DNA of 64,000 nucleotides. Source: Bilabrum cf. latius (lineage: Eukaryota). A program made the translations under genes and the position numbers. The stretch is taken from contig OZ237763.1 of NCBI GenBank assembly GCA_965178125.1, forward strand, positions 62,001 through 126,000. The letters are read 5' to 3'. The notes below the pieces were generated by a model. That model had not been told where the DNA came from and made no database searches. It worked only from the letters and a program-made list of their open reading frames with translations. Shown here one piece after another: positions 12,303 through 53,200 of the stretch. Position 1 is the first letter of the stretch; each line of letters opens with the position of its first letter.

Positions 12303-13119
12303 ATGCAGCGATACGCAAGACTAGGTAGAGTGTTGAAGTCATCGCTTTTGTCTGCTGATGTCTGCAAGCGCTGCCTTTCGTAGCGAGCCGCTATCTGTGC
12401 CGTGACAGATTCTAGGCTTCCAGTTCTGAATTCGCGTGCAAGCCCTACGTTTGCTCATCGTATGCTTGGAGTAAGGTACATGGGAATCATGGACTCTGTC
12501 TCCGGGTACATGCAATCATCATAGGCAAAGGCATCTGCAGACAAGCAGAGTGAGGGCACCACGTTGACTGCATGCCGGCCTCTCACTTCAGCAGGCCATT
12601 CAGCACTAGTCTGTAACTGATGTACTTTTTATCGCAGAGGAGACATTTAAAGCTATTGTGACCTACATGTAGGAGCAAGAATCGTTCACATTGGCGAACT
12701 ACAAGCAGATGCTCGCTGATCTACGAGAATCGTCGGGCATCGATTCGTGGCGCTCCAAGATGACGCCAGCCGACCAGAAAGCGGCCGTTGAAGAGTTTTT
12801 CGTAGACCTTAAGATCCTTGAGAGCTGTCCCGAGGAGGACCTGGCGACCCAGGGCACGCAGCTGAAACGCTCGAGCCGCACCAAGATGGCCGAGGGCGCC
12901 AAGGTGAGCATGTCTCAGGTGGGCCAGATGCTCAAGTCGTTCGAGGAGCGGCTCCGCATGCACCAGTGGATCCACGCCCGCATGAAGAAGAACCTCCCCG
13001 TGCCCGAGGACTAGAACTCATTCATGGCCATGATGCAGTCCAGTCCCATGGGGCAGGCCAGCCGCAAGGCGCAGATGAAGGCCATGGGCCGCATGAGGGG
13101 CAAGCCGAGGAGGGTGTGA
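12303..13119 (+). CDS. Mitochondrion-targeted protein with SRP54/Ffh M-domain-like region (MAP67-like)
   Basis: Arg/Ser/Leu-rich presequence MQRYARLGRVLKSS; intron 12550-12637. FTLANYKQML and KILESCPEED..KRSSRTKMAEGAKVSMSQVGQMLKSF resemble the Ffh M-domain. TAG at 12381, 12522, 12670, 13012. Ends TGA; 242 aa. Confidence 0.7.
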
Positions 13120-25013: not shown

Positions 25014-27482
<2,469 letters not shown>

Positions 27483-30252: not shown

Positions 30253-31669
30253 ATGCTTTTATCAGCGGATGGTGATGCCTCGCTAGGCATAAGTTCTTCC
30301 CTTCGCAAGCTTGAGGACACAGCAATGGAAATGCGGGCCGTGAATGAGCAGCAACCGGTAAGCGCCACGACATTATACGTCAAATACACAGATCTGCAGA
30401 CCGATCATTTATTTTCATTCTACATGCCTTCCCTCTTCGCAGATCATCCTGCTGGGAACTCCCGCGGCTGGAGCTCTCGTTGAGGCCGAGATATCCGTGG
30501 CTCGCGGCTGGCTCTGGGGCTCCCTGCTCTTCAGCTTTGTTCTCCTGGTGGCCCTCACCGCGAATATCAACGGGGCCGACTCCGTATCTGACGTGATCAG
30601 CACGCAGATATCTCCCTTTCAGGCCCAGCAGACGTACGGCAGAGAGAGCGCAACTTCGCCTCTTCAAGGGGGCGATGCCCCCTCAGGCTAGCCCCAGGAT
30701 GCACGGCGTGCTCTTGCGGGAGCAGACATAGACACAGGCACAAGCTCGGGCCCCGAAGTGTAGGTGCCTAAGGCTGATGGAGGCAACGACTCCAGCAGGA
30801 ACATGTAGCCCAAGGCTGCACTCCCGGGCCGCCCGAAACCCATGCTCACGTACAGGCGGTTCCCTGCACCACCCAGCACCAGACCCAGTGGCATGGAAAA
30901 TGATTCGTTGGTGCCTCACGAGGAGCCCGGCGAGGACGGTGTGACGGGTGATCCCACCGGGGCGCGGGGGCTCTGGGCACTGGCGGTGTGGGCCCAGCGG
31001 GCTGCTGCCGGAGCGGCGAGGCGCGCTGACCGGCTCGTGCACCGCAGTGCGATGCGCGCGGCGGAGCGGCTCGGGGCGGGGGCTGCCGTGTATCGGCAGC
31101 TGCACCGCAGTGCGGTGCACGCGATGGCTGCAGCCCCAGCGAGCTGGGAGATTCGTGAAGAGGGCGGAACGCGGGAAGGGGCGGGGGGCGGGGACGTGGG
31201 AGACGTGGGGCGCGTAGGTGCTGTGGGGACTGCCAGTAGTGATGGTCGAGGGGATACTGCGGCCGACTCTGGCCATCGCCGTCGGCGGCTCGATCCGAGG
31301 CTCAGTGAGGCGATGGTGCCTGCCCCGATCCCGATCGCGCGCTTCTTGTGGCCGGAGGAGCCCTCTGCGGGCGAGTCCGGCGGGCGGCTGCATCGCATGC
31401 AGGCGCGAGCGACGGTGTGTGCGGTTGCAACCGGCGTGCTACTGGGGCTGGTGGCGGTGGGTCTAGCGCTGGAGATGACCGTGCTGCTGCACGTCGGCGA
31501 GGCCCTCCTGATGGGCTGGTCGGTGCTGCTGCTGGGGCTCGCCCCCACGCAGTCCCTGGCCTGGCGAGCTGTGCTGGACGTGTTTGTGTCTCTGCTGGCG
31601 CGGAGGTGCAGGGTCATGCTCGAGCCAGCCGTGCACTCCGGGATCTCCGACCGGGTTGCGCCCATGTGA
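30253..31669 (+). CDS. Hypothetical multi-pass membrane protein (3' end uncertain)
   Basis: Exon 30253-30357, intron 30358-30442, then one frame with hydrophobic segments (WLWGSLLFSFVLLVAL; ATVCAVATGVLLGLVAVGLAL) joined across TAG at 30689, 30761, 30806. A further hydrophobic stretch at 31740-31900 may be another exon. Confidence 0.55.
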
Positions 31670-31935: not shown

Positions 31936-34900
31936 ATGGAGGAACCTGAAGCAGTTGTCAGGGCAATCAAGTAGTTTGTTGATGGTGTGGCGCCAAGTAC
32001 TGGGCATGATGGCTTGCGGTACGCCACTTTGCTCCTCGGATCTCAGATTGGCGGCGCTGCACCTGCAACGAAGGACTCCTCTGCGTACCTAGCGCACGAA
32101 TTAGATGTGTGCGCTGCCCGAGCTGGAGAAGCTATCGCATCGTGCGAGTAGTTTACCAGGGCTCGAAGATCTATTGAGCGTGCTAGCGAACGGGGATCTG
32201 CGCAGACACTAGGGTTAGCTCTTTTGAAAATGCGGGTCTCGGCGTTGGAACTAGTGACAGATATGTGCAGCCTATGCCTTCTAGCATAATCCAAAATGTT
32301 TGTATCGCGTATCTCTAATACTCCCTTTTCGCAGGTCTGTCGTACGGGTTCTCACCGAAGTGCACACGCGAGGTGCGGCCCAAGCGCTTGCGCTGACCGT
32401 CCCCACAGCACCCTCAGAGGAAGCTTCTGGTCCACAAACCGATCAAATTTCTGCAAGTACACCATTAGCTCCATCAAGTTCCTTTAATCGGCCCAAGGGC
32501 CGCGTAGCACTGGCCCGCGCGGCCGCCGCGGCCTCCCGAGGCGCCGCCACTGGCCCCGGGTCTCTCTTGCACTCGTCACGCGAGCGGCACCTCATCCCCA
32601 CCAGCGAGCAGGACCTGGTCCGAGCCCTCCTCATGGCGATGCAGGGTGTGACGAGCGAGCTGGTGGCCTGGGACGCGGGCCGCCGAGCCTTCGTGGTGAG
32701 CGAGGCACTGGCGCTGCCGGCCCCCGCCAGGCAGCTGGCCGCCAGGGTGTGCGAGGCGGGGTGGCTCTACCGGCGCGTGCGGAGGTGGTGTGACGAGTGC
32801 ACCGATCCAGCAATGGGGGCGGGGCCCGTGGAGCAGGCTCTCGGGGGGGCGGTCCGGGCCGAGCTGGACGCCTACCACCAGGCCCTGGGGGGCATGGGCG
32901 CGAGGGCCGTGCGGATTGTGACGAGTGGGTCGGCCGGTGGCGTGGGGGGCAAGGTGTCGGAGGCCACTGTGGGGGGCGTTGACTCTCCTGAGGCCCCCTT
33001 GTTCCCTGGGCTGACTCTCCGGCGGCTGGCGCTATGGGCCGCCGAGCCCGTCAGGCGGCTCTCGATCATCGCGCAGATGCTGGACGCGGCGGGCTCTCTG
33101 CGCGGGGCAGCGGCGGTGACGCAGGTGTGGAGATTCACGGGGCTGGGTGACCCCGTGCTGGCCGGGATTGCGGAACGTCTGGCGGTGCGCGGCGCCCGGC
33201 CAATCTTCGCGGCCATGCGCACGTGGGTGCGGGAGGGCCGTCTGGGCCAGGGAACAGCAGGATCCGGTGTGACGAGTGCGGACGGAGCCAGCGGGACGTT
33301 CTTCGTGCGGGTACGCCCGGGGATTCCGGCTGATAGGCTGTGGCAGGACAGATACAGGCTGGACGGCTGGCGCAGGCCGGGGTTCCTGGGCCGGGCCGAG
33401 TGCCGGCTCGTGTACCGGATCGGCAAGAATCTGAACTTTTTGCTCGAGTGCTGCGGAGACTAGGGCTGGGTGGCGGGCACGAGGGCTGGAGATGCTCCGC
33501 GGGGTGCTCTTGGGGGTGCAGGGGCAGGGGCAGGGGCAGGGGAGGGCGAGTCGTCGCTGGATGGCCAGGGTGAAGATGAAGAGTCATGGGCCCAGGCCGT
33601 GGATAGGGAAGAGCGGTTTCTGCTTCAATCAGGGAACAGCGGGTCGGAGTCGGGCGGGCATGTGCGTGCAGAAGCAGTCGGGTTCGGTGGGTATGGGGGC
33701 GGCAGCAGCAGCAGATCGGCGGGCGCAGCTGGTGAGATTGAGGGTGAGATGGCGCGGCAGGCGGCATCGCAGGCTATGCGAGAGGTAGGGACAGTTGGAG
33801 CACTTTCTGGTGCTGCACCTGCGCTTCCCGCCACCTCGCCGTACGGTGAGGGCAACAAGGAGGAGGAGGAGGATGAGGGGGAGGAGGATGATGGTGCCTC
33901 TGGTGCCGCGGCGGGCGGCCTGCCTCGGCTGCTGCGCCGACTGGCACGTCGCTCGGACACCCGCGTGCTCCGGCTGCTGTTCGGGCGGAACCGGCTCTGG
34001 TCCCACCTGGCAGCATGCCACCACTACCTGCTGCTCGCGCGGGCGGACTTCGTCACTGCACTGGTCCCTGCCCTTGAGCCCATCCTGGGGAGACCAGCCA
34101 CGGAGATCGGGCCCCACGTGCTGATCGCCGCCCTGGACGGTGCTCTCCGCTCCTCGAGCGCGGCCAGGGAACTGCCCCCCGAGTGCATCCAGCGGCTGTG
34201 CGTGCGACTGGAAAAGGCCCAACCGGGCGACACTGGCAGGGACATATTCGTGCTGGACTACCAGCCGCCACTAGCCCTCATGCCCGTGCTCTCCCACAGG
34301 CACTTGGCCGCCTACCGAAGGCTCTCGGGATTTCTGCTCCGAGTCCGTCGTGCGCGCTGGACGCTGACCGAGGACTGGAGCAGGCACGCGGGCACCGCGC
34401 GGAGCTTGCGGAACCGGCCAGAGCTACGGCAGGCGCTGCACGCGCTGCACCTCGCGCGGCAGGACATGGCCCTCTTCATGCACACCCTGGAGTCGTTCGC
34501 CACTCTCGAGGTGCTGGGAGGGGAGTGGAACCGCCTGAGGGACCGAGTGGCCGCTGCCAGGGCGCTGCCTGACGTGGTTGATGCGGTCGGGATGTACCTG
34601 CACGCGGCCATGGAGAGGCTTCTTCTGGCAGGGAGCAGGAAGAGGAGGAGACCCGCCCCCGCGCTGCAGGCGCTCATAGGGGAGTGCCTACGGTTCGCGG
34701 GTCTGTCTCAGAGGGTGCTTAGGAGGGCAGGGCGGGCGGAGGACGCGCTGGGGCAGGCCGAGCTGGACTGGAGGGAGGCCAGGGAACAAGAGGAGGATGC
34801 CAGGGAACAAGTTGCGCTGGGGGACGGGCCGGACGCGAGCCGCGAGGAGAGGCGGGCGGGCGAGGCGGCGCGGCAGCTCCTGGACAGGGCGCAAGCCAGA

Positions 34901-35170
34901 GTGCTCGCAGCCGAGGTGGAGAGAGACAAGGCCCAGAGGTCGCTGGAGGAGCTGGGGAAGAGCGCGCTCAAGGCGCTCGGAGGGGTAGTGGGCACGTACA
35001 GGCGTCACCTCATGGCTCTGCTGGCGGCGGTGCGCGCGGGAGGGGCGCGACTCCTAGAGTGGAGGGCGCTCACGGTGCAGTTCGACTTCAACGAATTCTA
35101 CGAGGGGAGGGCAAGGGCTGGGCTTGAAGGGACGGGGGCAGGGGCTGGCGCGGCTGTGGGGATGGCTTAA
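31936..35170 (+). CDS. GCP3: Gamma-tubulin complex component 3 (Spc98/GCP3)
   Basis: N-terminal LRYATLLLGS, EQDLVRALLMAMQG, VCEAGWLY, IGKNLNFL..CCGD, YLLLARADFV and C-terminal FDFNEFY. Intron 32214-32334. TAG at 31972, 32149, 33461. Ends TAA. Confidence 0.88.
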
Positions 35171-35338
35171 GTGATCCAGTGATCCCGTACGCCGGCATGC
35201 GATTCCTAATGCAATGTAAGCGCGTCTTGCGGCTGGTGATCAAGCGAAATCGAATTGCCGGCGAAACAATCACGTTGCCAGCTCCTGCCCCCATCTAGAA
35301 TCTAGTTAGATCTGAACTTTCTTACCGATTACAGCGGT

Positions 35339-38300
35339 TCAATTCATCGGGACACTGGCTCTAGCAGCCGCTGCCTCTTGCATCCTCCGCTTCCTCTGCA
35401 TCCCCGCTGCCCTCCTGAACCCAACGAGCACCCTACCCCGATCCCCAGGCTCCCTCAGCCAGAACCTTGCCCCCCTCCACCGACCCATCGCGTGCAGGCA
35501 GCGAAGGAACCGTCCGTGGTCCTTTGTGTAGGCGCATCGCACGATGGCCCTCGCCTGCTCGGCTTCTCCATGACACCCGACCCCAGCGAAGACCCACTCG
35601 GGGAGGGGCTCCTGCTGATTGGATGCTGCCGTCGAGACCGAACCACGATCCAGCTGGGCTGATGACTTTGCAGCCCTCTGCTCTGCTCTCGAGCTGGAGC
35701 TATGCCTTGCTGCGGTAGTTTCCTTTGTGGATGCAGTCCTGGCCACTTCGGAAGACGCCGTTCTGATACCGGCCTATGCACTCGCACCTACCTTCAAGTG
35801 CGGAAGCATGGCACCTTTTGCCTGCAGCTCGGTCAGTGACTCAGGTGCTCCCGGGAGGTCAGAGCCGTAGAACTCACGCATAAATTGCGTCAGGGTAGAG
35901 TGCTGAGGTGCTTCCAGATCTCGTACGCGGAAACCGTAGTAGATCTACCTGTCGTTGGACTGCCGGTCGGCCGCTCCGAACCGGATGAAATCACCAGGCG
36001 CAGTGGCATCTTTGATCGAGTCAAGGTCCATCCGCACGCCCTCGAGATCGATGCCAGACCCCGCCAGCCCGCGATCCACAGCCCTTTGCAACGAGAGAAG
36101 CAGCTGTGGGGCCGAGATCCGAGGAGGGGCTTTCCGACGGCTTACCTTTCGTCGGTACACGGTCTTGCCACCGCGCTTGCCCGACATTGGGACGCTCTTT
36201 GCGCCAGATAAGCCCTTATCGTTTGCACGTTTGTCTCTCCGCATCGCTGAGTTCTTTGCCGAGTCCACACATTGCCCATGCATGTCTATGCTCGCCCTAT
36301 CAGAGGCAAGGCAGTCTTGTCGGGATGCAGCAACACCTGCTCTAGTGAGATCATGTTCGGCGTTGTCTTCCGAGTTGTCTTGTTCTGTTCCGCTTGCTTG
36401 TTTCTGTCCTGGCGAGGCCCGGTTGTTGCTTCCACCGCTTGTGCTGCCAGGAGGCTCAATTTTGTCATGATTCAGCCCAAGCATCTCGCACATGGTAGCA
36501 ACAGGCGGATCTACTCCCCACCTGCCTCGTGCAGCCGCCTCCGCCACAAGCAGCCGATGCTGGTTGATCGTGGCTCTTGGCAGGCACACCTTGTCGAAGC
36601 TGCCCCGGAGCCTTGCCCCCTGCATCAGCAGCAGCAGCACTTTGTCAAGAGCACCCTCAGGATCCACCTCATAGCTCTCTGCCGCTGCCAGGATCGGGCG
36701 GCCATAGAAAAAGGTCATTGGGTCATAGGCTTGGTCCGCCCGCGCACCTGCCGCCAGCAGCCCAGCCACCGCCTCCAGACCCCTCACCCTGCATGCCTCG
36801 GACAGAGCAGATTGCGCGGCAGACCGCATGTATGCCGAGTCCCGGCACGTCATCAGCGCGACATACAGTGTGTCCGTGGTGCCGATCTTGCCGAGATTCC
36901 TGAGGAGCCTGTCCACCCGTGCATTGATTCGAGCGAAGTTCACCACCACGGACAGCTGCTTCGGGTCACCACCTCCACACTTTACGAGTCTGTTTGCCAC
37001 GTCCTCGATGGGCTCCTTCTCTATGCCATCCTGCCTGCTGGCACCACTCCCAGCTCCCATAAGGATAGGCAGCCCACTGGACCTAGCAGCGCGAGCAGCC
37101 GCCCAGCGCCGCTGCCAATCCGGGGGGCAATCAGCGTCCGTGTCCCGGTTGCTGGGCAGACTAGTGGCGAGCTGTAGCACCGTGCCGGAGCAAAGAGGGG
37201 TGTATTCCATGCTGCGGGCGAATCTACTAAAGACCACGTACCCCTCCTAGTGTTGATAGTCCACCCAATCCGTTGCGAGCACCCTTCCAACGGACCACAT
37301 GGCACCGTGGCTCCCTACTTCTGCTGAAGAGACTTGCAGCGGCGGCCGCTCATCGCTGCTACCCATAGCACCAGCACCAGCACCAGCACCAGCACCAGCA
37401 CCAGCACCAGCACGAGCGCCAGCACCAGCACCAGCACCAGCACCAGCACCAGCACCAGCACCAGCACCAGCACCAGCACCAGCACCAGCACCAGCACCAG
37501 CACCAGCGCCAGCGCCAGCACCAGCGCCAGCACCAGCATTTGCAGTAGGATGGCAGTCTGCACGCGTGTCTGAAACCGGTGCAGGTCTACCCCCCGTCCG
37601 AATGTTGCCGGCACTGCCCCTCCTTTTCCATCCCATGGCGGCGCTTGCACCTGGCAGAGGTGGGGCATAGCGCGATGGGGCCTGCAGCGACAAGTGGGCT
37701 AGGGCACGCCATGCGGCTTGCCTGAATGTCCCCGCAAGATGCCGGGTGCTCAACCGCAGCCACGCGGCAGAAGAAGCGCCCGCCAGGATGCCTCGCTCCA
37801 ACGCCTCGAAACTCGCGGTGCACTCCCCGAACCGCGTCGCCGTCGCACCTACAGCCGCAAATCCAGACAATGGTCCCGGCGCAGGAGAAGAGGGTGCTCC
37901 ATCCAAGCCGAGACGAGCCTCGTTGCCTCGATTGCACTCTTGATCGAGAATTCGAACAGCGGCTTCGACCGCGTCAACGCACTGGCGCATCGCGACCAAG
38001 CAGCTAGGAACATCGCCGCCAGAGCCAGATGATGATGCCTCACTCGGCTGCATGGGAGCCGCTTGGGCGCTGCAGGTGCGGTCGAGTTCGACCCGAAGAG
38101 CTTCGGCGGCGTCGCTGACAGTCAATCCGAGCCGTGCTGCGGAAACATTAGTACCTGGGCAATCTGGTGCATCGGGGGTTTGGTTGTCCGCTGAAACGCT
38201 AGCTCGCGTTGAAGACAACCCGCGGGACGCCTCGCCCGCGAGTAGCTGCGCGACTACACGCTGCCGCCTCATGGCAGAGAGCGTGAGCATTCCACCCGTG

Positions 38301-40690
38301 GATTGGTCCGGTTGCAAAGCCGTGGTGAGGCCGGGCATGCAAATCTTCGCGCCTGCCTCTGGTTCAATTCGAATCGCTGGGCTGCCAGTATTGTCCACGA
38401 CGTCGACCTAAAGCTGATCCAGACCACCTTGGATCAGCTTGTTCAATATAGGCCGCATCGCGTCCACCAGGTTGGATGCTCGGCCCAATTCGCTGTGCGA
38501 GTGCCCAAAACCGACAAAATCGTGCGATCTCCAGCTCAACCGATACATGGCCTTGCGTCCCCCCTCAAACTCGACATCCTCGATGGGAACCACTGGGTCT
38601 CCTCGTACTGGCCCTCGGGCTGGTGACCCTGACGCCGATGCACCTGCAGCTGTGGCGTGGGCGGCCGACTCGTGCTACATTCCTGCTATCGTGGCGTCGT
38701 CGTCACCACTAGTCTACGACTCAAGCGCTTGCCCCACCCTCTGAGCGAGCTTGGCCATGTATGCCCTGTTCGCCTGGACGCACGTGGTGCGGGACTACGG
38801 TGGCATGACCGCTCTGTGCATGGCTGTATCCTCTAGTTGAACCGCACTGCGATGGTGCGCTTCTCCACTTAAAGAATGCTCGCTGTTTCTTCCACCCACA
38901 CGTTGGCTCACTGCCCGCACCCATTTCTCGACATCCGCGTCCTCCCTTTCTGCAGCAGCAAGTATGGCCAGAGAGGCGAACAGCCGAGTGTCCTCCTTGT
39001 GCAATGCTGTTGACTCGACGGCCCGTGCCACGTAGTGCAGGGGCGTGGCCCCCCTGGAATTGCCCTGCAGCAACAAGCCCTCCCCGCCCTGGGCCAGCAG
39101 AGGGAGAGCGCCGGCCGTGTACTTGGCTGCCGCAGCCATTTGGGCCGCAATCGAGTGGGCTCGCGTGCTGAGCCTGGCCTCACCACAATGCTAGCCCTTA
39201 ACATGGCTCCCTCGCCGGTCGAGTGCGTTGCTGTCCATCTCCTCGTGCGCCTGCAGGATCCGTGTGACGACTGACTGCCTTCGTTGGATCGACTAGGCGA
39301 GCTCGAATTCTAGCTGGCTATCACTCACGTCCGCAGGAAGCACTGCAGTGGTCTATCTATCTGTGGGATACCCTAGCATGCCCCTTCCAAGGTCGTCCTC
39401 ATCCGCAGCATCCACCCTAGCCGTCCTCCATCGATTGGGACCCCCACCTTGCTGCCTCACCATATCATCCTAAACGTACCCGCCCAGCAGGCCAGCCCCC
39501 ATCTCCCGTGCGGCTGCATCTGCGAGCAGCATGAATCGAGTGAACCTCGCGCGGATTGACCGGCTGCCGCCTTCCAGCTCCACTGCAGCCTCCCTAGCAG
39601 CAGCTGCTGCTGCGCCACTAGCAGCAGCAGCAGCAGGATTATAATCATCGCAACTCATGGCCGAAGCTGCAGATGACATTGCACCAGGGCGTGTGCTGTG
39701 ACCTGCACCGCCGCGCAGTGTAGCCAGCAGCTCCCTAGTGATTGGCCCAGGCACCTTTGCTTTGCCTTTGCCCCTGCCCTAGCCATCATCAGCGCCTCGG
39801 TCTCTGTGGGTCCCAGTATCGTCCCGCATCGAGGATGAGCTCGATGTGCTTGCCGGTGTGCTTATGCCGGTTGTGGTGGTACCCGCAGGATTCGCATTCG
39901 AGCAAGATGCACCCACCGCCACTGCCACTGGCACTGGTGCTGGCAGCCCAGTCGGGCCACCATCGACCCTAGGGAAGTACAGCTGCAGCTCCCGCAGCTC
40001 CACCCCCGTTGTTGGCTCATTCCTAAGCAAACTAGCGCCCCGTGATACCAACGCGCGGACAGTTTCAATGTGTCTCTGCCACACCGCCAGCTGCAAAGGG
40101 GTGTAGTTCCCAGGCGGCTAAGAGGGGAGGCGGGCATCGGGATCGAAGTACAGCCCACTGTCTAGAAGCAAGGCACATGCCCCCACTCGCCCGTGGAAAG
40201 CGCAGAAATGCAGCAGCGTGCCATATTGTGGCGGGTATGGGATGTGTGCACCCCATCTTGGCCTTGCTCGCTGGATGGGGGGCAACCGATAGACTGCGGC
40301 AGCCGGAGAGACAGCATGACCGGCGCCGAGAACGAGGACGAGCATCGCGCGCTTAGCCTGCGGCAGACTTTCCGAAGCACGCATAATCTTCTTGATTGGA
40401 ATTCCGTGCAGTGGTTTATTGCGCCTCCACGGATTCACAGCTCGATCTTCTGCAACAATCCGAGCGACCTCGACATATAACCTGCAGATAAGTTCAAAGG
40501 CAACATCAGGCAGCTACTTCATCGTTCCAATGGCTACGATGAAACTGTAAGCTGCAGAATGCAGTGCATTGGATTCGGCGGTGAATTTGACTAGCACCAG
40601 TTCCTGCAAACTTGCTGGCACTGGACCAACCTAGCTGTACACAACATCTACCAACTCATGCAAAACCTTGGATATCGAGGCAATATCCAT
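35339..40690 (-). CDS. Giant (about 1783 aa) ankyrin-repeat-containing protein, tandem copy A
   Basis: One frame from ATG 40690 to TGA 35339, interrupted only by about 15 TAGs. Ankyrin motifs [67 protein letters not shown]. Confidence 0.75.
37368..37537. repeat. (GCACCA)n hexamer array coding (Gly-Ala)n within copy A
   Basis: About 28 units with a few variants; absent from copy B. Confidence 0.95.
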
Positions 40691-41566
40691 TTTTAAACGG
40701 TGCTGATTATCACTAAAATCGATCGGGAGAGGACACAATTTCATGCTCCGAATCCGAGTGAAACAGTGGAGCAGTGTGCAAATGCACTAAATTATGCGCA
40801 GGCTGCTGCTGCGGCAACTTTCAACTTCCGCTTCCTCTGCATCCCCGCTGCCCTCCTGAACCCAACGAGCACCCTACCCCGATCCCCAGGCTCCCTCAGC
40901 CAGAACCTTGCCCCCCTCCACCGACCCATCGCGTGCAGGCAGCGAAGGAACCGTCCGTGGTCCTTTGTGTAGGCGCATCGCACGATGGCCCTCGTCTGCT
41001 CGGCTTCTCCGTGACACCCGACCCCAGCGAAGACCCACTCGGGGAGGGGCTCCTGCTGATTGGATGCTGCCTTCGTGACCGAAGCGACGCGGCGGGCAGG
41101 AGTGGCCACGTTGCCACGGGCAAGCCTACTTTTGGAACTGGGGCTTGGGGCTACCTTTGGCACCGGTTTATCTTTGGAACTGGGCCTGGGAGCTGCCTTT
41201 GTCGCCGAACCAGGCCACAAGGACGCCTTCTGGGCAGGTCTAGGTCTGGCGGCCCCCATCTTGATGAGACCCCCGGGTTTGTGACCGCCAGAGAGCACTT
41301 CATTCGAGTCCGAATCGAATATGATGTCACATGCAACGTCGCTGTCACTGCGACTGTCTGACTCCGGCCCACGGGCCTTATGGGCCCCCTGTGTTGCGGG
41401 CTTGGGAGGTTTGGGCGTCTTCTTAGTCAGCTTGCTCGCCAATGCCTTGCCAGCTGCCTTCTTCGTGCTTGTGGAGGTCTTTTTCGCCCAAGGGCTCGGT
41501 TCCTTCTCGTCCTCTGAATTCGAGCTGGATTCTGATTCCGATTCCGTCTCGCTCCCTGTGTCGCTA

Positions 41567-41651
41567 CCGAGATCTAAACCCGGCTCTGTCGCAGCAGATT
41601 GCTTGATACCGAGATCTAAACCCAACTCTGTCGCAGCAGATTGCTTGATAC
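41567..41651. repeat. About 42-bp direct tandem duplication (GIKQSAATExGLDL x2)
   Basis: ccgagatctaaaccc..ctctgtcgcagcagattgcttgata occurs twice. Confidence 0.85.
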
Positions 41652-43978
41652 CGGCCGCGGCACCGCGCATCGCTGCGGCAGCAGTGGCAGATCTAGTAGC
41701 CGAGGAGCCTGCCGCTGCAAGTGCCCCAGTGGTGGGCTAGGCTATCAGTGCTTCCGATGCCAACGAGCCCAGTGCACCCTCACCTACCTTCAAGTGCGGA
41801 AGCATGGCTCCTTTTGCCTGCAGCTTGGTCAGTGACTCAGGTGCTCCCGGGAGGTCAGAGCCGTAGAACTCACACATGAACTGCGTCAGGGTAGAGCTCT
41901 AAGGTTGACCCCGGTCTCGTGCGAGGAAAGCGAAGTACAGGCTATTTGAGTGCCGGTCGGCCGTTCCGAACCGGATGAAATCACCAGGCGCAGTGGCATC
42001 TTTGATCGAGTCAAGGTCCATCCGCACGCCCTCCAGATCGATGCCAGACCCCGCCAGCCCGCGATCCACAGCCCTTTGCAAAGAGAGAAGCAGCTGTGGG
42101 GCCGAGATCCGAGGAGGGGATTCCTCTGGCTCCGAGTCGGCACCCGGCTCTGCGGTGGCAGCTCCAAGCTGCTGCGCGCCGTACGAGCTGCCTGGATTGC
42201 TCCTGTCGGCTGTCTTTCGCTGGATGCTGCTTCCCATCCACTTGTCCTTTTCCCCTCCAGGGGACAGGATGCCCCACTTGCCTGGCATCGCCCCCAAACC
42301 TGCCGTGGAGCTAGTCGAAGCATCTACAAACGGACCATGCATCCTGATGATAGCCTAATCGGCGGACATGCATCCATTCCGCGTCGTCTGCGCCGCTTCT
42401 TCACCCCTCAGTAAATCGCGGCACTCTGCCCTAGGCACCTATAAGCCGGCCCCTCTGGTATAATTCATGCATGGAGCAGCTGATGGCCTGGCGACATCTG
42501 CATGTTGTATACCAGAGGGGGCGGCTGGATGGTTGTTACCAGCCCCTTCCCCAACTCCTTCCCCTGATGGTTGCGCTCGCAGCCCAAGCATCTCGCACAT
42601 GGCAGCAACAGGCGGATCTACTCCCCGCCTGCCTCGTGCAGCCGCCTCCGCCACAAGCAGCCGGTGCTGGTTGATCGTGGCTCTTGGCAGGCACACCTTG
42701 TCGAAGCTGCCCCGGAGCCTTGCCCCCTGCATCAGCAGCAGCAGCACTTTGTCAAGAGCACCCTCAGGATCCACCTCATAGCTCTCTGCCGCTGCCAGGA
42801 TCGGGCGGCCATAGAAAAAGGTCATTGGGTCATAGGCTTGGTCCGCCCGCGCACCTGCCGCCAGCAGCCCAGCCACCGCCTCCAGACCCCTCACCCTGCA
42901 TGCCTCGGACAGGGCAGACTGCGCGGCAGAACGCATGTATGCCGAGTCCCGGCACGTCATCAGCGCGACATACAGTGTGTCCGTGGTGCCGATCTTGCCG
43001 AGATTCCTGAGGAGCCTGTCCACCCGTGGATTGATTCGAGCGAAGTTCACCACCACGGCCAGCTGCTTCGGGTCACCACCTCCACACTTTACGAGCCTGC
43101 TTGCCACGTCCTCGATGGGCTCCTTCTCTGTACCATCCTGCCTGCTGGCACCACTCCCAGCTCCCATAAGGACAGGCAGCCCCCTGGTCCTTGCAGCGCG
43201 AGCAGCCGCCCAGCGCCGCTGCCAATCCGGGGGGCAATCAGCGTCCGTGTCCCAGTTGCTGGGCAGACTAGTGGCGAGCTGCAGCACCGTGCCAGAGCAA
43301 AGAGGGGTGTAGTCCGCGATACGCCTAGCCGTTATCAACCTCCTAAGACTGCCATCGTAGTGGTCATCTTTCCAATGCATGGCCAGCGCACGGCCCACGC
43401 AATGTATTGCGTGGTGGCTGTGCAGCATCGTGCCAGCTGTCAAGGAGGGTTGCACGGCCCGTGACGCCCCCGTGTCATCGTCACACCTTTCTGATGGACA
43501 TGCGTCGCTATGGTGAGGCAGCGCGGTCAAATCTGCGACAGACAGATCCCCGCAATCGGCCTTGGTCATCTCTCCAGGGGTCAGGCGACGCTCCCCGGAC
43601 CCTAGGGACCCGCCTTGCGATCCGCCACCATGCCGTGTGGCAGCCAGGGACAGGTGCGCCAGCAGTGCTCCAGCGCCTCGCTCCACAGCCCCCGCCACAC
43701 GTCGAGTGCCCAGCTGCATCCATCCAGGAACAGCGAGGCCCTCCAGCTCTCTATCAAGGTCTTGTAGGCTTGCAATGCATGATGCCAGTCGCGCTGCGGA
43801 TGCACCCACTGCAGCCAGACCGAACAACCCACCGGTGTTGCCTTTGCTTCCCACAGCAGAGCTGGGCGTGTTTCGCGGCTGCCCTTTGCATTCAGCGGCT
43901 AGACCATGCACTGCCGTTGCAATTGCGTCTACGATGCGACGCATAATGTCTGCCTCTCCTGACCCATCGCCTCCTGCC

Positions 43979-44024
43979 CCGGACGATGCCCTGGACGATG
44001 CCCTGGACGATGCCCTGGACGATG
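43979..44024. repeat. 12-bp repeat (GGACGATGCCCT) about x4
   Basis: Directly visible; codes (SSRA)n on the minus strand. Confidence 0.85.
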
Positions 44025-44413
44025 CGGCGGTGCCCGGTGTAGCCTACTGCTCGATTTCTCCAGCACGATAAAGCTCCTTCCGCAGCGACGCTGCGCCGGC
44101 ATCTACAGCCAGCAACAAGCCCTAGGGCGATACGTCCGAGTATTTGCTTGCTGGGCTGCCTGCGTGCGCTGTTGCAGGGGGTGCACCACTCCTAGCATGC
44201 CGCGCATTTCTACGCGCCGCAGCCTCTGCAGCGCGGTACTACTTCCTCAAAGCAGAGAGCGTGAGCACTCCACCCATGGATTGGTCCGATTGCAAAGCCG
44301 TGGTGAGGCCGGGCATCATAATGGTAGCATCGGCCACGGGCTAGGGACGAGATTGGCCGCTGTGCAGCTGGCAGTAGTCGGTGGAGCTGTTCTTCGCACG
44401 GTGCTGCTGCCGC

Positions 44414-44415
<2 letters not shown>

Positions 44416-44448
<33 letters not shown>
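44416..44448. repeat. (CTG)n tract, poly-Gln (CAG) on the minus strand
   Basis: Directly visible. Confidence 0.85.
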
Positions 44449-47297
44449 AGATCTTCTTTTGCCACTGCCTGTGCCCTTTTTCCTGTACTTGCCACCGCGC
44501 GCCATGCTCACCTTGGAGGCAAGACTACGCTCCCTATTTCGCTCCTATTTGAGAAGCTGTCTGGAGTACCGCATTAGAAGGGCTGCAGATTCTTCCAACT
44601 TCTGTATCTACAAAGACTTTGCCTCCCCTGGGTCGTCGTTCGTTCCCTCCTGCTCCTGGGCATCATTATCAATACTGTCGATCGCATCGATGTCGACGGG
44701 CCGGCGGTACACGACCTCCACCTGGAGCTGTAGCAGTGAACCCTTGACCAGCTGATCACTGATCTTCTGCACGCTACTGGCCAAGTCAGTCACGTACCCC
44801 TGGACATTTACAGTCTTTGCCCTCCCCATGTCTCTATGTGGTGTCAATTTCAACCGATACATGGCCTTGCCTCCCCCCTCAAACTCGACGTCCTCGATGG
44901 GGACCACTGGGTCTCCTCGTACTGGCCCTCGGGCTGGTGACCCTGACGCCGATGCACCTGCAGCTGTGGCGTGGGCGGCCGACTCATGAACCATCTCCAT
45001 GTCCACGCTCATCGCCCTGTCACCAACGATGGCTCCGAGTGATGCGTCCACCCTGGCGGCCAGCTGCTGCACATGGGCTCGGTTGGCCAGCACCGTTGGA
45101 TTGTCCAGCTGATCGGGCAAGACTGCTCTCTGCACAGCCGCGTCCCGCTGCTTCAACGCACAGCGGTGATACTCTCCTTCGCTTAGTGTTTCCCCACCGC
45201 TGCCGCCACGATCTCTACCACTCACCCCCCGCACCCATTTCTCGACATCCGCGTCCTCCCTTTCTGCAGCAGCAAGTATGGCAAGAGAGGCGAACAGCCG
45301 AGTGTCCTCCTTGTGCAATGCTGTTGACCCGACGGCCCGTGCCACGTAGTGCAGGGGCGTGGCCCCCTTGGAATTGCCTCCATCGGCTGGGAGCCTCGCC
45401 TTGCTGCCTCACCATGTCATCCTGAACGTCCTCGCCCAGCAGGCCAGCCCCCATCTCCCGTGCGGCTGCATCTGCGAGCAGCATGAATCGAGTGAACCTC
45501 GCGCGGATTGACCGGCTGCCCCCTGCCAGACTGGTGGCATCAGCAGTCGCGATGGATTTGTCAGCACCAGCGCCCATGGATGCGATGCTGGTCGCACTTC
45601 GCTCCTCTATGTCCATCGGCTGGGAGACAGACCTTGGTAGGCCATCCGCCTCAGCTGCACCCCCATCCAGCGAATCTAACAGTTCTTGTGTGATCAATGT
45701 AGGCACCTTTGCCGTACCCTCGCCCCTGGTTTTGTCAGCGCCAGCGCCAGCCCTCATAGCATCAGTGCGTCTCTTCCAGTCTCTAGCTTTCCTAGCCGGC
45801 TCCTTGCGAGTCGTGTCGAAGGGATCTGATTTCCCTGGAGCCTTGGTGCCGCCCTTGCTGCTGCTGCCGTTGCTAAACCCCCCTTCGCCATCAATACCAT
45901 CATCAACATCACCAGCATCGTATTCATGCTAGTGGTCCTCGATACCAGCCATGGGGCCGCCATCCACCCTAGGGCTCCAAAGCTGAAGCTCCTACAGCTC
46001 CACCCCCGTTGTTGGCTCATTCCTAAGCAAACTAGCGCCCCGTGATACCAACGCGCGGGCAGTTTCAATGTGTCTCTGCCACACCGCCAGCTGCAAAGGG
46101 GTGTAGTTCCCAGGCGGCTAAGAGGGGAGGCGGGCATCGGGATCGAAGTACAGCCCACTGTCTAGAAGCAAGGCACATGCCCCCGCTCGCCCGTGGAAAG
46201 CGCAGAAATGCAGCAGCGTGCCATATTGTGGCGGATATGGGATGTGTGCGCCCCATCGTAACTGCCAAGGCAGCCTTGCTCGCTGAATTGGGGGCAAATC
46301 GTAGACTGCGGCAGCCGGAGAAACAGCATGACCAGCGCCGAGAACGACGGCGAGCATCGCGCGCTTGTCGTCTGGCATGCTTTCAAGGACATCTGCGATT
46401 GACCTCATTGGCAGGTGTAGCGGAATTGTGTTGTTTCGCTCAACAGTGTGACCACCGTCACTGTCGGTTAGCAGCTCAAAGCTGTGAGCTCGATCTTTGG
46501 CAACCATGCAAGCAATGCGTACATACAATCCACACAAATGCTCAAATGCTGAACCGCTCTATTTAGATTCAACACAAATGTTCTTCATGGCAACCAAAGC
46601 TGCAGACTTTGGATCCTTTCCTTCGGCCTACAATTCCGTGACTAGGAACGGCTGCCACTCAACCGGGATTGGGCCGACCTCATCCAACGCACTACCAACT
46701 AAAGCATGTAAACGGGCCTAATACGCATCAGATTGGTTCGACATTATGCAATGAGTGACAAATTTGGCTCTGAAATGTTGACAATCCGAGGATTCGGAAC
46801 TTCGGATCGGCAGGCGCCGCGCCGCGGCCCGGCCGTTCAGCGGAACCACTGGCACCCACCGCGGCACGACCTGGCGCTCAATGAGCAGCACAGCGCCAGT
46901 ATCCGTTGCGTAATCTGCGCTTAGTGTAATGCACGTTGACCGATAATCGGTGCTGTACGAGTGCCATGCTGGCTCAAGCCACACGGTTGTACGAACAAGG
47001 AAGGACAGACCCAGCAGGTGTTCCTCTCACGAGACTTGACGGAAATTACGGTCGCCCAGCCCTGCTGCATGCGGGCAGTCGTTGGGTGTGGTACTGCAGC
47101 GTGGGGTTGTCTACAGGCAGCTGCTGGTTCGATTCCGGTTTACCCCCAAGCGCACATCGACGTGCCCATGTTGATCTGGGGTCAGGAATCCGAATCCCCC
47201 AGGGATACGCCTGGGGTATTGTATCTAGCATGCTTGGTGGATATGCTGTGTCAAATGCTTGGTTAGCACCTCAAGAGATAGCAGTACGATTTTATCA

Positions 47298-50200
47298 TCA
47301 AGCAGTTGATGCCGTTCGTGCAGTGCAGACGTACCGACAACTCGAGCACAGCGACACCACCACACACACAAGCGCCATTGGGAATGCCACCGCCAGCACC
47401 TGCACACGCTGCGCACCAACAAGTGACGCATCCAGCCCAAACACCGCGACGTCCTCGGCCTCCTGCAGGGCCGATCTCACCAGCAGCCCGGACCCGCGAC
47501 CTGCAATCAGACGAGCCGCCGCCAGCGAGCATTGCTCCCACCCACACACGCCCAGCACGCACGCAATCGCCCACCCGCACACGCACATCACGCCAACATC
47601 CTCCAGCAGCCGCAGCCACCACCCATGCATGCGCACCACACCCAGCCGCGCGTGCATTCGGGCCACCGCTGCTGACTAGGCCCCCATCACAGAGCTGGTC
47701 GGCGATCCGCTGGAGCCTGACGACTAGGACGCCTGCCCGTCCGCTCCCATCAGCAGCGGCTTGCCCAGTGCAGTGGTTGCTTGCACCGTATCATCTCTCA
47801 TCGCGAGCCAGGCAGCCGCGCCCTGCGCCTCCCAGGCCAGGGTTGAGAGCCCACGCAGCACGGCACACAGGGTGGGTCTGCGCGCCAGCAGCCGCAGCAA
47901 GTCGCGGTTGGTTGCGACAGTTGCGCTGCCGCTAGCGGACGACGTTCTGGTTGACCTGATGGAAGTGGAGCCCGGCTGTGCCATAAACGAGCCTACAGGT
48001 GGAATCGTGCCATGGCTGGTTTCACCTGCGCCCTCGATGGCTGGAGCCGCAGGCATGAAGGTCCCCGACCCCGCCCTGCCCCGCGGTGCGACGGGCGGCC
48101 GAGAGCTCAAAGATTTTCGGGCTCCTGGTCTGCCCATCCACCTAAGGCTGGGCTGATCCTAGGGCTATTGGTCGTTGCCATGATTTGCACCGGTAGGTTG
48201 ACTTGGCCGCCTGATTCCAGTGCGCTGCGGAAGCCGCGACTGCAGTTGCGCACCCGACGGCTCACCGTGCGCACCCTGCTCGGAGTGTATGAAGACGGGC
48301 TTCGCTGAGTTCCTCGGGGGTGTTTTGCTGCCTCCTACCATGGAATCGCCCGTGTGTGGACCACGCGAGTCCATGCTGGAACCATCGCCCGAGGCTGTAC
48401 CCCTTCGAACTGTTCCCCGCTGTGTCCATGACTAGCCTCGAATGGGAGACGACGTCCTCACAGCCGGGCTGCCTTGGCTGGTGTGCCTCGACTCGTGCGA
48501 GCCAGCGCCCGCTGGTGGACCCAGGGGCGGACCCAGCTCCATTGAGTGAGGTGTATGCTGTGCGAAGGGGTCCTCAGCGCGTTGGACTGCCAGTGGTGGC
48601 CCACGGCCTTGCACGTCAAAGCCAGGGGTCTCGTAGGCAGCACCGTGTCGAGCATGCAGGGCAGTAGACCCCTCACCGATGTCCGTCGGACTGACGTCAC
48701 CGCTCGACTCGGAGTCATCCATACTGGCCGCAATGTCCTCGATTCCGTCGAAGTGGTCGAGGCCCAGGCCCGCGCTGGGAGACAGGCGGACGTCCTGGCT
48801 GTCAGCAAGCGCGGGTGTGCGGGCCTCTAGCCGCACAGGAACAACACGCGCGCTCTTGGTTGCTGCACCGTCGTCGTTCCGCCCCCGAGTACCACTTTGG
48901 CTGCTTGCGGAATCGGCGTCGCGTGTAGGAGATGCGGCTGCGTCCAAGACCATTCGAGCGACCTCATCCACGGGAGCTGCCGAGCCGGTGTGCTGCGCTT
49001 GCAACTCTTTAGCACCATGGCCTTCATCGCCGGGTTGAAGGCAGGTGTGTAGATCAGTTGCGCTGCTCGCCGCCGCATGGTCATTGATCGTGCCTCCTAT
49101 ATCACCCGTCGATCGCAACCTCGAGCGCGTGGTGCTACCCATCTCTTTGCCTCTGATTTGACCTCCACCATCCCGGTCCCCGGTAGACCCATCAGGGAAC
49201 AGATTTTCCACCCTGGCAGCGGGGTCTCTTAGATGCAGCTCCCACGCATCGCTGTCACCAAAGAGGTTCGGTGCATCAATGTGGTCCTGCGTCTCGCTTC
49301 CCAGGATGTTCTGCCCGTACGATACCACTTCCAGTCCCAGTGATCGATCGCTCTTTACCCCGCTTGCATCGTGCGGTGAAACAGAGGAGGAAGAGCTCTC
49401 GAGCATGTCGCCAGTGGCCCCCCGCTCTCTGCTCTGGACCCGCAGAAGATCGTCAGTTCCTACCCCGGCGTTGCTCGTTGTGTTCAGTAGGTCGTCAGTG
49501 CCGAGCATTGCATCGCTCTAGGAGGTGCCGGTCGCTGATTCTCGGCGCTGCCGCTGGCTCTACATCGGCAGTGATTGCTTCGAATGGCTATATATATGAG
49601 ACCTGCTGTTGTTAGGCACCGGACCGAGCTGTGATCTCGAATTGGTGGATCGCCCTCTTGAACCACTGTCGGCGTGCTACCTTGACCCAGGCCCTGATTC
49701 CGACCAAGGTCCTGACCCATTCGAGGAGGGCACACTGCGGCTCACAACGACAGATCCGGAAATACTGCTGGACCGGCTCCTCGGTGGGTCTACCCCCAGC
49801 TCCCCGCACCCAGTCAGCACCCGAACCACCTCGCAGAATCCACCTGGCACGGCATCCCCGTCAATCTGCTTGGGTGCAAGGATGTCGAACTGACCCGTGA
49901 GCACCATGACCATGCGCAGCAGCACGATCATGGATAGCCAGATACCCATGATAAGGGCGGGCAGCGAGCACTCGGCGCGCACTAGCTCCACCACCAGCAC
50001 CCACATCCACGCCAGACGAAGAAACTGCACAGTCACGCTCAATAGCAGCACCCACGCAGGTGACACGGCACCCCGACTGCTTCCGGTATCATTGCCCGTG
50101 CCGGTGTTGCGAGATTCAAACCCACTACCAGGAGCCAGCTGCATGGTGCCCATCACCTGCAGCACGCGGTCAAGCTCCGGGTCTGCTGCCTCCAGCCACA

Positions 50201-53200
50201 GCCCGTCGTTGGGATGCATGCTGGGCGTGGTGCTGCTACTTCCGCCACCAGACGCGCTCTCTTCGCCGTGCGAATTGCATAAGTCTTTGCAGCAGCTAGC
50301 CATCGTCGGCACGCACAGAGCTACCGCAAAGGCAAGCGTCAGGCACGCCAGCACCAGCTGCGTCACCACGCGCCCACGACCAGCCCACTCGACCCACCCA
50401 TCCACACACACATCGTCGTACCCGCCGCCCATCACATGCAGGCAAGGCAGCACCACGCGCACCGACACGGATCTCTCGTCCACCGCCAGCAGCCACGTAC
50501 CGCCCTCGCTCCCTGGCCGCTCCCCCCGCAGTGTCGCTGTCAGTCGCTGGGCCACAGCACCAGCCGACCTGCCCCGCTGCAGCGCCGCGTGTGTTTCTTC
50601 TTCCTACTCCTGACTGTCCACCAGCACAGGATGCAAGTCCACGCGCACTGACACGCGCATGGGCAGAGATGGAGGCGGCACGCACAGGCTGCTGTTCCAC
50701 ACCCCGTCTTTGGGGTACGGGTCAGCACCTCCCGCCGAGGCCATTGCCTGCACTCTTTCGATCCCGACCCTCCAAGCTCGGTCGTCTTCCGTGTCCCCGG
50801 CCAGGTCCCTCAGGTCATCCAGCAGATCCTGAACCATCCATTGCTGCTGTTTCGGGCCGGGGTTTGGGTAGTCCAGCCCTGGAGACCGGTCTATATCGTT
50901 CCAATCAGCATTGCCTTGAGCCGGCAGCCACACGTTCCGGTCGAACACCAGGTCAAACCGTAGCTGAGCCCGCCCCACCACCTCCCGCTCTGCCCACGCC
51001 GACCCATACCCCTGCACGACCGACCCCCATCCCGGCTTGTTCTCTGGCTGGCAGGACATGTCCGGCGACCTGTCCACCCACCCCGACGGTCCATCATCGT
51101 CGTCATCATCAATTCCAGTACCGGCCGCGTACTTGGGCCACGTGTCAGCGCTCTCCACCGGTGTCTCACTGGCCACCAGATGACTCACTGCAGGCACGCG
51201 GGCCAGCCTGCCTTGCTGCAGCAGCTCTGGAGACTGCTCCAGCCGAGGGTGTCCCAGCCACTCACCGTACCAAACGCGCACTACGCTCGCCACCTGCTGC
51301 CACACCGACCCACGCGCCCCGCCCACGCCCATCTCCAGCCTAGCGTCCACAGCCAGCCGGTTGGACTCCCTGCAAGTGGCCTGGCACACTGCCCTCCCCG
51401 CGAAGTGGCCCATGAGGCTGCTGCGGTGGCAGGCCCAGGCCCCTCCCCGGATGGATGGCAGGGAGCGGGAAGGGGGCCAGGGGTACAGCCGACTGGTGAC
51501 GGCCCCACGGTATAGAGCTGTCGGGCCCATGATGCTGGGCTCGAACGCCTGCAACCCTTTGTCACCAGGCACCTTGAGGGGGACGTCGATGATGGAGTTG
51601 GCTCCCCTGAAGTCCGTGTAGTTGTTCCTGACAGTGTCTGGCACGTCTTCAGGGATGGGATACCTGCCCCTGGCAGCCGGAAAAATAAATGGTTGGGCGC
51701 CGATCCGCGGATCCACAGATTTGTACCATATGCCTGGCTGCTCCCTGCCGCCGAGCTGCAGCCCCCTCGTGTTCTGCGAGGCGGGCATGTCCATGGGCAT
51801 CAGATCCACGTTGTGCTCCCGCAAGTCAGCATCGTAAGCGATCGAGCAGCCCAGTCTGGCCCGAGGAAACACACCCTTGACCGCGTCCGTGCTTGCATAC
51901 TGGTCCAGCAGCTGTCTAAGGCTGGGTCGTGTACCCCACGTGGCTCCACCCACATCAGGGGTGCAGTTGCGATGGTTCACGCACCAGGGGTCGTCCAGCA
52001 GCACCAGCGCACTTGGGCCAATGGTTCGCGCGCCGTCACGGCTGTATGTAAATGTAGAGCAGTCCATGGAACGCCCCGCTCTGCTCCCAGAGGTCGTGCT
52101 GTTGCCCTCACCCAGCACGTCAGTCGGCAGGTCGATGTCAAGAGCGATCACGTGCACCCGATTCACCCTCCAGCTGTAGTCAGGGTAGTCCCCCGCCACA
52201 GTCATGTTCTCAGTGGCAGGCAGCACGGCCACTGTGCCGGGCGGATACACGGTCAGCAGCGACTGGTGCCAGCGCGGGGTCGGTCTCGTGGCATCGATCG
52301 TGGGCCGCACCTGGAGGTTGATCGTTCCTTTGCTGCACACCACTGCTTCAGACCCAGCGTAATTCCCGCCGGAAACGCCCGAATCAGGGAAAAACGAATC
52401 GAGGTTCTGTCCAGCGTATGGCGGGCAGCTTTTGTTGTTGCGTCCGGCGATGTTGCTGCCACACTGAGCATCCCGGGCAGCTGCCTCCCCACCGCCCGCA
52501 CTGATGCTGGCTCTAAGCACTTTCGCCGGTGGTGGTAGCCACCGCTGCTTCGTGGGCCACACGGTGAGCTGCCTACATACGTCGTTGCCCTCTATGGTGG
52601 TGTTCCAGGTCGTGTTGGCGGTGCTGTAGATGGACCGCGGGCATTGCGCCACGCTGACCAGAGCACACACGTCGACCGAAACAAGCCCAAGCCCTGCAAA
52701 ATTCACGCTGAATTCGGTTGTTGGAAGGTCTCGCGTCGCCGCATAGCCCAGTCGGTATCCCGTGCTGGCCACCGTCGGCGTGGTGGCGTACATCTGGGGG
52801 CTCTGGGCGATGAGGTTCGTCTTGAAAAACGGGTTTACGATGGAGAACCACTGCTCCACGCTCCAGGGCTCTGCCGATCGCAGGGGAAGGTTCAAGCCAT
52901 GCATGTACTCGCTGCTGCCTAGGTGTGCGGGCTGCTGCTGGGCCGTGATGAGACTGGGTGTGCCTCCAGCCAAGGCAGGCGAAGCCAGCCTCGGCAGTCT
53001 GGGCTCGGCGATGGGACCGGCCGCTTGCGACTGCTCTCGAGACAGCTTCAGCGTGCTCGGCTGCCCAGGGCCAGTCGGCCAGCAATACCTGAATCCTTTC
53101 GTTCTCCACTCGTCCGATTGAAATAAGCCCTTGTCCCAAGGGCGACGGAAAAGTGTAGCTGCTCGGCCTCGCCCACTCGATTGCAGGTAGGGCGCATCGC

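Follow-up and report, generated by a model that had tools for sequence, protein, structure and literature searches.

The codons UAG and UAA differ in meaning within the 64-kb stretch of Bilabrum cf. latius DNA analyzed here (contig OZ237763.1, positions 62,001 to 126,000; hereafter the window). This conclusion is supported because TAA is absent within genes that hold 72 in-frame TAG codons and closes 2 of 17 genes, as composition predicts, and TAG closes none. An earlier sequence-only reading of the same DNA had proposed that the two codons are uncoupled, and these counts bear it out. We interpret the window as using a nuclear code in which UAG is a sense codon, most likely for Gln, with UAA and UGA as terminators, the pattern of NCBI table 15 and of Iotanema spirale, and we give this interpretation a probability of about 0.78. 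UGA does most of the terminating and UAA a small part, as expected from base composition. The evidence that UAA actively terminates, and is not merely avoided, comes from two gene ends, those of a GCP3-like gene and of one copy (ankB) of a tandem ankyrin gene pair, plus one orthologue comparison, and it is indirect but consistent.

In-frame TAG and TAA and the use of stop codons

When TAG was taken as sense, frames of 1400–2000 codons appeared in the window. The 18 coding segments comprise 15,699 codons and contain 72 in-frame TAG, 0 TAA and 0 TGA. The zero count for TAA is circular because these frames were bounded by TAA and TGA, and therefore the test was redone with 13 validated frames bounded by TGA alone (15,321 codons). 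Five in-frame TAA were found in these frames, none of them in a gene interior (Table 1), in agreement with the earlier claim that no gene contains an internal in-frame TAA. The TAA-free interiors of TGA-bounded frames include those of the membrane-protein gene (2018 codons), ank1824 (1893), the lipase (1418), the cullin (1337), the coiled-coil gene (872), the N-terminal part of ankB (669), the RNA 3'-phosphate cyclase (RTC; 643) and the aldolase (392).

The coding segments contain 54 TAA, 184 TAG and 494 TGA off frame, and over the whole window TAA is less frequent than TAG and TGA on both strands (157/154, compared with 388/402 for TAG and 687/746 for TGA). The sequence-only reading had cautioned that TAA would be rarer in GC-rich DNA; this effect is real but far from sufficient to explain the counts. 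If TAA were read like TAG, 34.9 in-frame TAA would be predicted from the gene-wise CAA/CAG ratios, 25.9 from four A/G-ending codon pairs, 20.0 from the pooled CAA/CAG ratio and, as the lowest value, 5.6 from the most GC-biased pair, CTA/CTG, and the number observed is 0. The probability of observing no TAA ranges from 7e-16 to 0.004 across these predictions, so the lack of in-frame TAA exceeds chance and, for the window, has a solid statistical basis.

In its usage, TAG resembles a non-preferred codon. The TAG-rich genes are those richest in A-ending codons, as in the other ankyrin copy, ankA, which contains 37 CAG, 25 CAA and 15 TAG. In-frame TAG falls within the Pfam domains of GCP3 and of glutaryl-CoA dehydrogenase (GCDH). 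The base following in-frame TAG (+4) is G in 29 cases, C in 18, T in 14 and A in 11, and no obvious leaky-stop context is seen.

Across the genes, TAG density drops with rising GC content at third codon positions (GC3), for example at 1248–4751, 5897–7054 and 19980–22238 compared with 35339–46744. No TAG occurs in the ABC, aldolase, coiled-coil and CK1 genes (GC3 0.84–0.89), in MAPK2 (0.71) or in RTC (0.62), and 7–15 TAG each occur in ankA, the N- and C-terminal parts of ankB, and the lipase (GC3 0.56–0.70).

Seventeen gene ends were counted in the window: 15 TGA, 2 TAA and 0 TAG. The TGA majority with two TAA ends described in the sequence-only reading stands, but its total of 16 TGA ends was revised by the recount to 15, of which 12 are well supported (aldolase, lipase, ank1824, coiled-coil gene, both MAPK copies, ankA, membrane protein, cullin, PCI, RTC and GCDH) and three belong to weak gene models (the open reading frames (ORFs) at 12568–13119 and 30362–31669, and the CK1 tail). 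Given the off-frame TAA:TGA ratio of 54:494, 1.7 TAA ends would be expected against the two seen, and the absence of TAG ends compares with 4.3 expected from composition (P ~0.007, in a small sample). TGA is a real stop at conserved C-termini: the aldolase ends in ...SGYVY, as in the sister proteins P0001 and P0393; GCDH ends in ...GKHE, as in the sister protein P0121; and the Nedd8 domain of the TGA-ended cullin covers profile positions 2–63 of 63. GC content over the 100 bases 3' of the two TAA is 0.53 and 0.43, and a similar fall follows most TGA stops. Nothing points to a dedicated back-up stop. The positions given earlier for TAA at the ends of GCP3 and ankB and for the tandem TGA TGA TAA of the membrane-protein gene were all found correct on a codon check (Table 1).

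Three further candidates around gene ends were rejected. The plus-strand frame at 50652–53126 that ends in TAA is an antisense artefact of the 1868-codon membrane-protein gene, with high GC content at first codon positions, low GC3 and a junk-like translation. The stop within the first-exon-like frame of the ABC gene at 5073 is the TGA of a GTGAGA splice donor and not TAA. TGTAA, as a poly(A) signal of the green-alga type, occurs at 7 of 17 gene ends no more than 400 nt from the stop; the distances vary widely, from 5 to 235 nt, and the motif was left unused. In ank1824 (minus strand, 13384–13430), the last TAG lies 15 codons ahead of the TGA, and TAG may have a context-dependent stop role near gene ends.

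Relatives of the TAA ends, the identity of UAG and alternative readings

The GCP3-like gene matches the Pfam families GCP_N_terminal (E 1.5e-35) and GCP_C_terminal (E 9.1e-43, profile 1–309 of 309). A search of representative proteins with GCP3 returned a sister with 94% identity, present as two gene calls (P0243 and P0242), and a cousin with about 73% identity (P0244). The DNA of the cousin is a metagenome contig of 2010 bases (L001), in which the GCP3 frame of 664 codons contains one in-frame TAG and no TAA and ends in an unambiguous TGA. After the RARAGL motif, the tail is 15 residues in L001 and 14 in the window; therefore, the TGA stop of the orthologue lies at most one codon from the window TAA. 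The in-frame TAG trait is shared by the window and L001.

The single in-frame TAG of the window GCP3 aligns with Gln in the sister and with CAG in L001. The two sister calls meet at a window CAG (Table 1): P0243 ends in ...ESWA, and P0242 begins two residues on, at the window's GTG. The sister thus probably carries a standard-code stop, most simply TAG, at the position of this window CAG.

At the other TAA end, ankA and ankB provide a paralogue comparison, with the start of ankA set by alignment to ankB. The two proteins are identical at 84 of 89 positions until about 12–17 codons ahead of their stops and diverge after that. In the alignment, ankA (TGA) ends four residues past ankB (TAA), and read-through of the TAA would lengthen ankB by 17 residues. 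The end of ankB reads ...AACA TAA, and another 16 sense codons lie ahead of the next in-frame TGA; in these 16 codons GC3 is 5/16, compared with 0.64 in the gene. A search with ankA for relatives of shorter length returned one unrelated match, with low-complexity words crowding the candidates, and no orthologue of the ankB TAA end. Contigs from the sequencing runs of two studies (X4 and X5) span both TAA sites with zero letter differences, and one of these runs may be the window's own source.

ankA and ankB are a head-to-tail tandem duplicate, with 103 bases from the ankB TAA to the ankA ATG. The frame of ankB changes at 45012–45020, where a stretch found in ankA is missing; an intron, a deletion or a frameshift is possible. 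An apparent TAG-to-CAG variant at 39472 in the run contigs was rejected as a polymorphism, as it lies within a cluster of differences matching ankB and is taken as cross-mapping of that copy.

Gln is the most likely meaning of TAG, and we regard this assignment as quite probable from the aligned columns. Besides the GCP3 position, 18 paralogue columns contain TAG; one has TAG in both copies, and in four of the 17 non-identical columns the partner of TAG is CAG, with 6/12 to 11/13 identity in the surrounding alignment.

A number of observations weigh against the proposed code. In the other 13 of the 17 non-identical columns, the paralogue has a codon other than CAG opposite TAG (GAG, ACC, AAA twice, CTG, CGG, GTT, GAA, GCA, TAC, AGG, AGC and GCC); these columns are mostly in poorly aligned stretches, but the CGG pair stands in a context of 10/13 identity. 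The column of the sole GCDH TAG is Lys also in the 97% sister P0121, which disagrees with Gln. Just two gene ends use TAA, and each has an in-frame TGA 4 or 17 codons downstream, as the sequence-only reading had already cautioned; read-through at both would be nearly harmless because the TGA is so close. Both tails are low-complexity or lineage-specific, so homology does not speak against read-through, and although the C-terminus of the sister call P0242 coincides with the last residue of the window GCP3, this says little because a standard-code gene call halts at TAA whatever TAA means. Some of the counted segments hold short intron read-through (ABC ends, MAPK exon and CK1 tail), and the data basis is 64 kb plus one 2-kb relative, as DNA only.

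These observations bear on several other explanations. UAG and UAA might be uncoupled with UAG encoding an amino acid other than Gln, such as Lys, Ser or Leu. The GCDH column would fit this, with Lys in 10 of the 11 homologues and Arg in the remaining one, as would the paralogue pairs of TAG with AAA (twice) and AGC (once), and codes with UAG = Leu and UAG = Ser exist (PMC11687900, PMC8271138). On the other side, two orthologue comparisons and the four better-aligned paralogue columns favor CAG or Gln, and the AAA and AGC pairs stand in contexts of only 2/7 to 5/13 identity. A Lys-to-Gln change in GCDH is plausible because the sister differs at about 3% of GCDH residues. We consider a different amino acid unlikely. 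Less likely again is a UAA that is effectively unassigned or terminates poorly and is avoided everywhere, with the two TAA ends tolerated thanks to the nearby TGA. There are only two such ends, each near an in-frame TGA, and the evidence for termination at them is indirect; however, TAA ends occur at the compositional rate (2 of 17, compared with 1.7), unlike what avoidance would give.

If UAA and UAG both encoded Gln, as in code 6 of ciliates and ulvophytes, UGA would be the sole stop, TAA would be too rare in GC-rich coding DNA to be seen, and both TAA ends would be sense. The rarity of TAA on each strand and the TGA located 4 and 17 codons past the two TAA are in line with this. Yet the 5.6 to 34.9 TAA predicted alongside 72 TAG are missing, even though the TAG-rich genes are the richest in CAA; the only TAA in gene bodies are confined to the final 5 codons of 975 and the final 18 of 1556, for which the chance is about 6e-5 under uniform placement; and the TGA of L001 aligns at most one codon from the GCP3 TAA. 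This explanation is therefore highly improbable. We give almost no weight to a standard code in which the in-frame TAG are untranslated, being products of pseudogenes, missed introns or assembly errors. The genes with the highest GC3 (ABC, aldolase, coiled-coil cc752 and CK1) as well as MAPK2 and RTC do lack TAG, but open frames of 1400–2000 codons with up to 15 TAG and no TGA or TAA are not a product of decay. TAG also occurs within the GCP3 and GCDH Pfam domains, a relative with 77% identity likewise has one in-frame TAG in an otherwise open frame of 664 codons, and contigs from other runs carry identical letters. The code with UAG as sense, most likely Gln, and UAA and UGA as stops is thus the reading that we retain.

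Gene content and source of the window

The window is a piece of a GC-rich eukaryotic genome with spliceosomal introns. Its GC content is about 63% (range 60–68%), with a persistent negative GC skew, and its introns are canonical GT-AG introns of about 200 bases. Pfam matches identify ordinary eukaryotic genes: an ABC-B transporter, a class I aldolase, a class 3 lipase, ankyrin proteins, a CK1-like kinase, two MAPK-like kinases, GCP3, a cullin, a PCI protein, RTC and GCDH. The ABC gene extends beyond the window edge. A tRNA scan and an Rfam scan of the window found no tRNA and no Rfam family, and eRF1 is not among its genes.

Table 1. Positions of the genes, codons and in-frame TAA discussed in the text (window coordinates; codon numbers refer to TGA-bounded frames)
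Feature	Position	Strand	Remarks
Class I aldolase	5897–7054	plus	identified by Pfam
MAPK-like kinase tandem duplicate	25014–26905 and 27856–29571	minus	intron in the kinase domain of each copy
GCP3-like gene, last large exon	32633–35170	plus	one in-frame TAG; TAA end at 35168–35170
In-frame TAG in GCP3 N-terminal domain	33461–33463	plus	Q in 94% sister P0243; CAG in L001
CAG (Gln) at break between sister calls	33593–33595	plus	between P0243 and P0242
GCP3 end, ...GMA then TAA GTG ATC CAG TGA	35168–35182	plus	TAA stop and next in-frame TGA
Ankyrin copy A (ankA)	35339–40690	minus	1783 codons; 15 in-frame TAG; Pfam Ank_2; TGA at 35339–35341; ATG at 40690
ankB stretch from TAA to TGA	40741–40794	minus	16 codons between the two; TGA at 40743–40741
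Ankyrin copy B (ankB)	40792–46744	minus	17 in-frame TAG; two frames, 45020–46744 and 40792–45012; TAA end at 40794–40792
Membrane-protein gene	47298–52904	minus	1868 codons; TGA TGA TAA at 47300–47292
Sole in-frame TAG of GCDH	62641–62639	minus	
In-frame TAA, ABC	codon 8 of 1182		5' of the start
In-frame TAA, ankA	codon 44 of 1987		5' of the ATG
In-frame TAA, MAPK	codon 28 of 379		within a GT-AG intron
In-frame TAA, GCP3	codon 971 of 975		reported gene end
In-frame TAA, ankB	codon 1539 of 1556		reported gene end

GC skew is below zero in 14 of 16 bins of 4 kb, and about 12 of 18 genes are on the minus strand. The spacers between genes are very short; for example, 170 bases separate the convergent stops of GCP3 and ankA. 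Both MAPK-like copies carry a long microsatellite encoding Gly-Ala, which is much longer in the copy at 25014–26369.

The named proteins matched by the window genes (64–76% identity) are scattered over plants, stramenopiles and others. Relatives in public data are a sister lineage at 94–99% protein identity and a cousin at about 77% in GCP3. The aldolase is 56–60% identical to 80 prokaryotic genome loci, mostly of Prochlorococcus, and 66–70% identical to named plant and algal proteins, being about equally close to both; a look-up in a protein atlas placed it in generic aldolase clusters only. A scan of the prokaryote genome collection with GCP3 as the query gave no match. DNA nearly identical to window positions 32600–42500 is present in the runs of four studies under four different organism labels, so the organism of the window seems to recur in sequencing data filed under other labels. 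The run data compared (X4–X7) are contigs that behave as DNA.

Comparison with known codes and implications

Both UAA and UAG encode Gln (NCBI table 6, UAR = Gln) in many ciliates, Dasycladales, Cladophorales, hexamitin diplomonads, oxymonads and Amoeboaphelidium. The window is similar to these in that TAG is probably Gln and TGA is the commonest stop; it differs in that TAA is also Gln there, whereas the window has 0 in-frame TAA (6–35 expected) and two genes closed by TAA. The code of Amoebophrya sp. ex Karlodinium, in which all three stops are sense (PMC12005148), was rejected as a match, as TGA is never in frame in the window.

The sequence-only reading is right that UAA and UAG usually change together, but codes that separate them have already been published (PMC5304391, PMC11687900). 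Reassignment of UAG alone is reported in Iotanema spirale (Fornicata; Gln) and the rhizarian exLh (Leu) (PMC5304391; Panek et al. 2017), and in Hartmannula sinica, Trochilia petrani and Protocruzia tuzeti (Gln) and three TARA phyllopharyngeans (Leu) (PMC11687900; McGowan et al. 2024). In Scotinosphaera, UAG is Ser and the stops are TAA and TGA (PMC8271138), and one ciliate has been described with UAA = Lys and UAG = Glu (PMC10553269). The code table proposed for the window is therefore not new, because UAG-only codes have already been published.

Iotanema spirale shows the pattern proposed for the window, with UAG = Gln, UAA kept as a stop and the same inferred mechanism of a CUA tRNA and an altered eRF1 (PMC5304391). 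However, UAA is the primary stop there (PMC5304391), compared with TGA at 15 of 17 ends and TAA at 2 of 17 in the window, and the window differs further in its GC content of about 63%, its mitochondrial-type genes (GCDH) and its GT-AG introns, with no link to fornicates. Hartmannula, Trochilia and Protocruzia share the UAG-only change to Gln and widespread in-frame UAG, but their GC content is 27–54%, lower than that of the window (PMC11687900). In phyllopharyngeans, UAA closes 86.9–98.3% of genes and UGA is the stop used least, a preference opposite to that of the window (PMC11687900). In exLh, the TARA phyllopharyngeans and Scotinosphaera, UAG is decoupled and UAA retained, as in the window; UAG is Leu or Ser there, whereas the orthologue and paralogue columns of the window favor Gln. 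No GC-rich eukaryote with a UAG-only code was found in the literature, of which the coverage was partial, so this is not proof that such a code is unpublished.

By the logic published for such codes, a tRNA with the anticodon CUA, probably derived from tRNA-Gln(CUG), would decode UAG, and an eRF1 with lost or weakened recognition of a third-position G would keep its recognition of UAA and UGA. The anticodon CUA pairs with UAG and not with UAA, whereas UUA reads both by wobble (PMC5304391, PMC11687900), and UAG can change alone because CUA cannot pair with UAA. In Iotanema, T32G in the GTS motif of eRF1 was proposed to weaken the recognition of UAG (PMC5304391).

Our tentative suggestion, with the odds somewhat below even, is that the window and its two relatives represent an undescribed GC-rich lineage in which UAG came to mean Gln separately from the known cases, and in which UGA terminates most genes and UAA a minority. 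The high GC content and the predominance of TGA make the setting unusual, as UAA dominates in the published UAG-only codes compared here. The genome would be annotated with errors under the standard code or table 6, and its annotation calls for table 15 or for a custom code with TAG = Q. A GC-rich example of this kind would also provide an eRF1 able to tell UAG from UAA and UGA, a property useful to know for the engineering of amber codons. Few codes treat UAG and UAA differently, and those that do demonstrate that two codons which usually change together can be split by the ribosome, tRNAs and eRF1. If true, the GC-rich case means that UAG was taken over in a setting in which it ought to have been a frequent stop, and it therefore argues against the disappearance of the codon under AT pressure and for a route through an ambiguous intermediate. 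A GC-rich, UGA-dominant example would broaden the known conditions for the capture of UAG.

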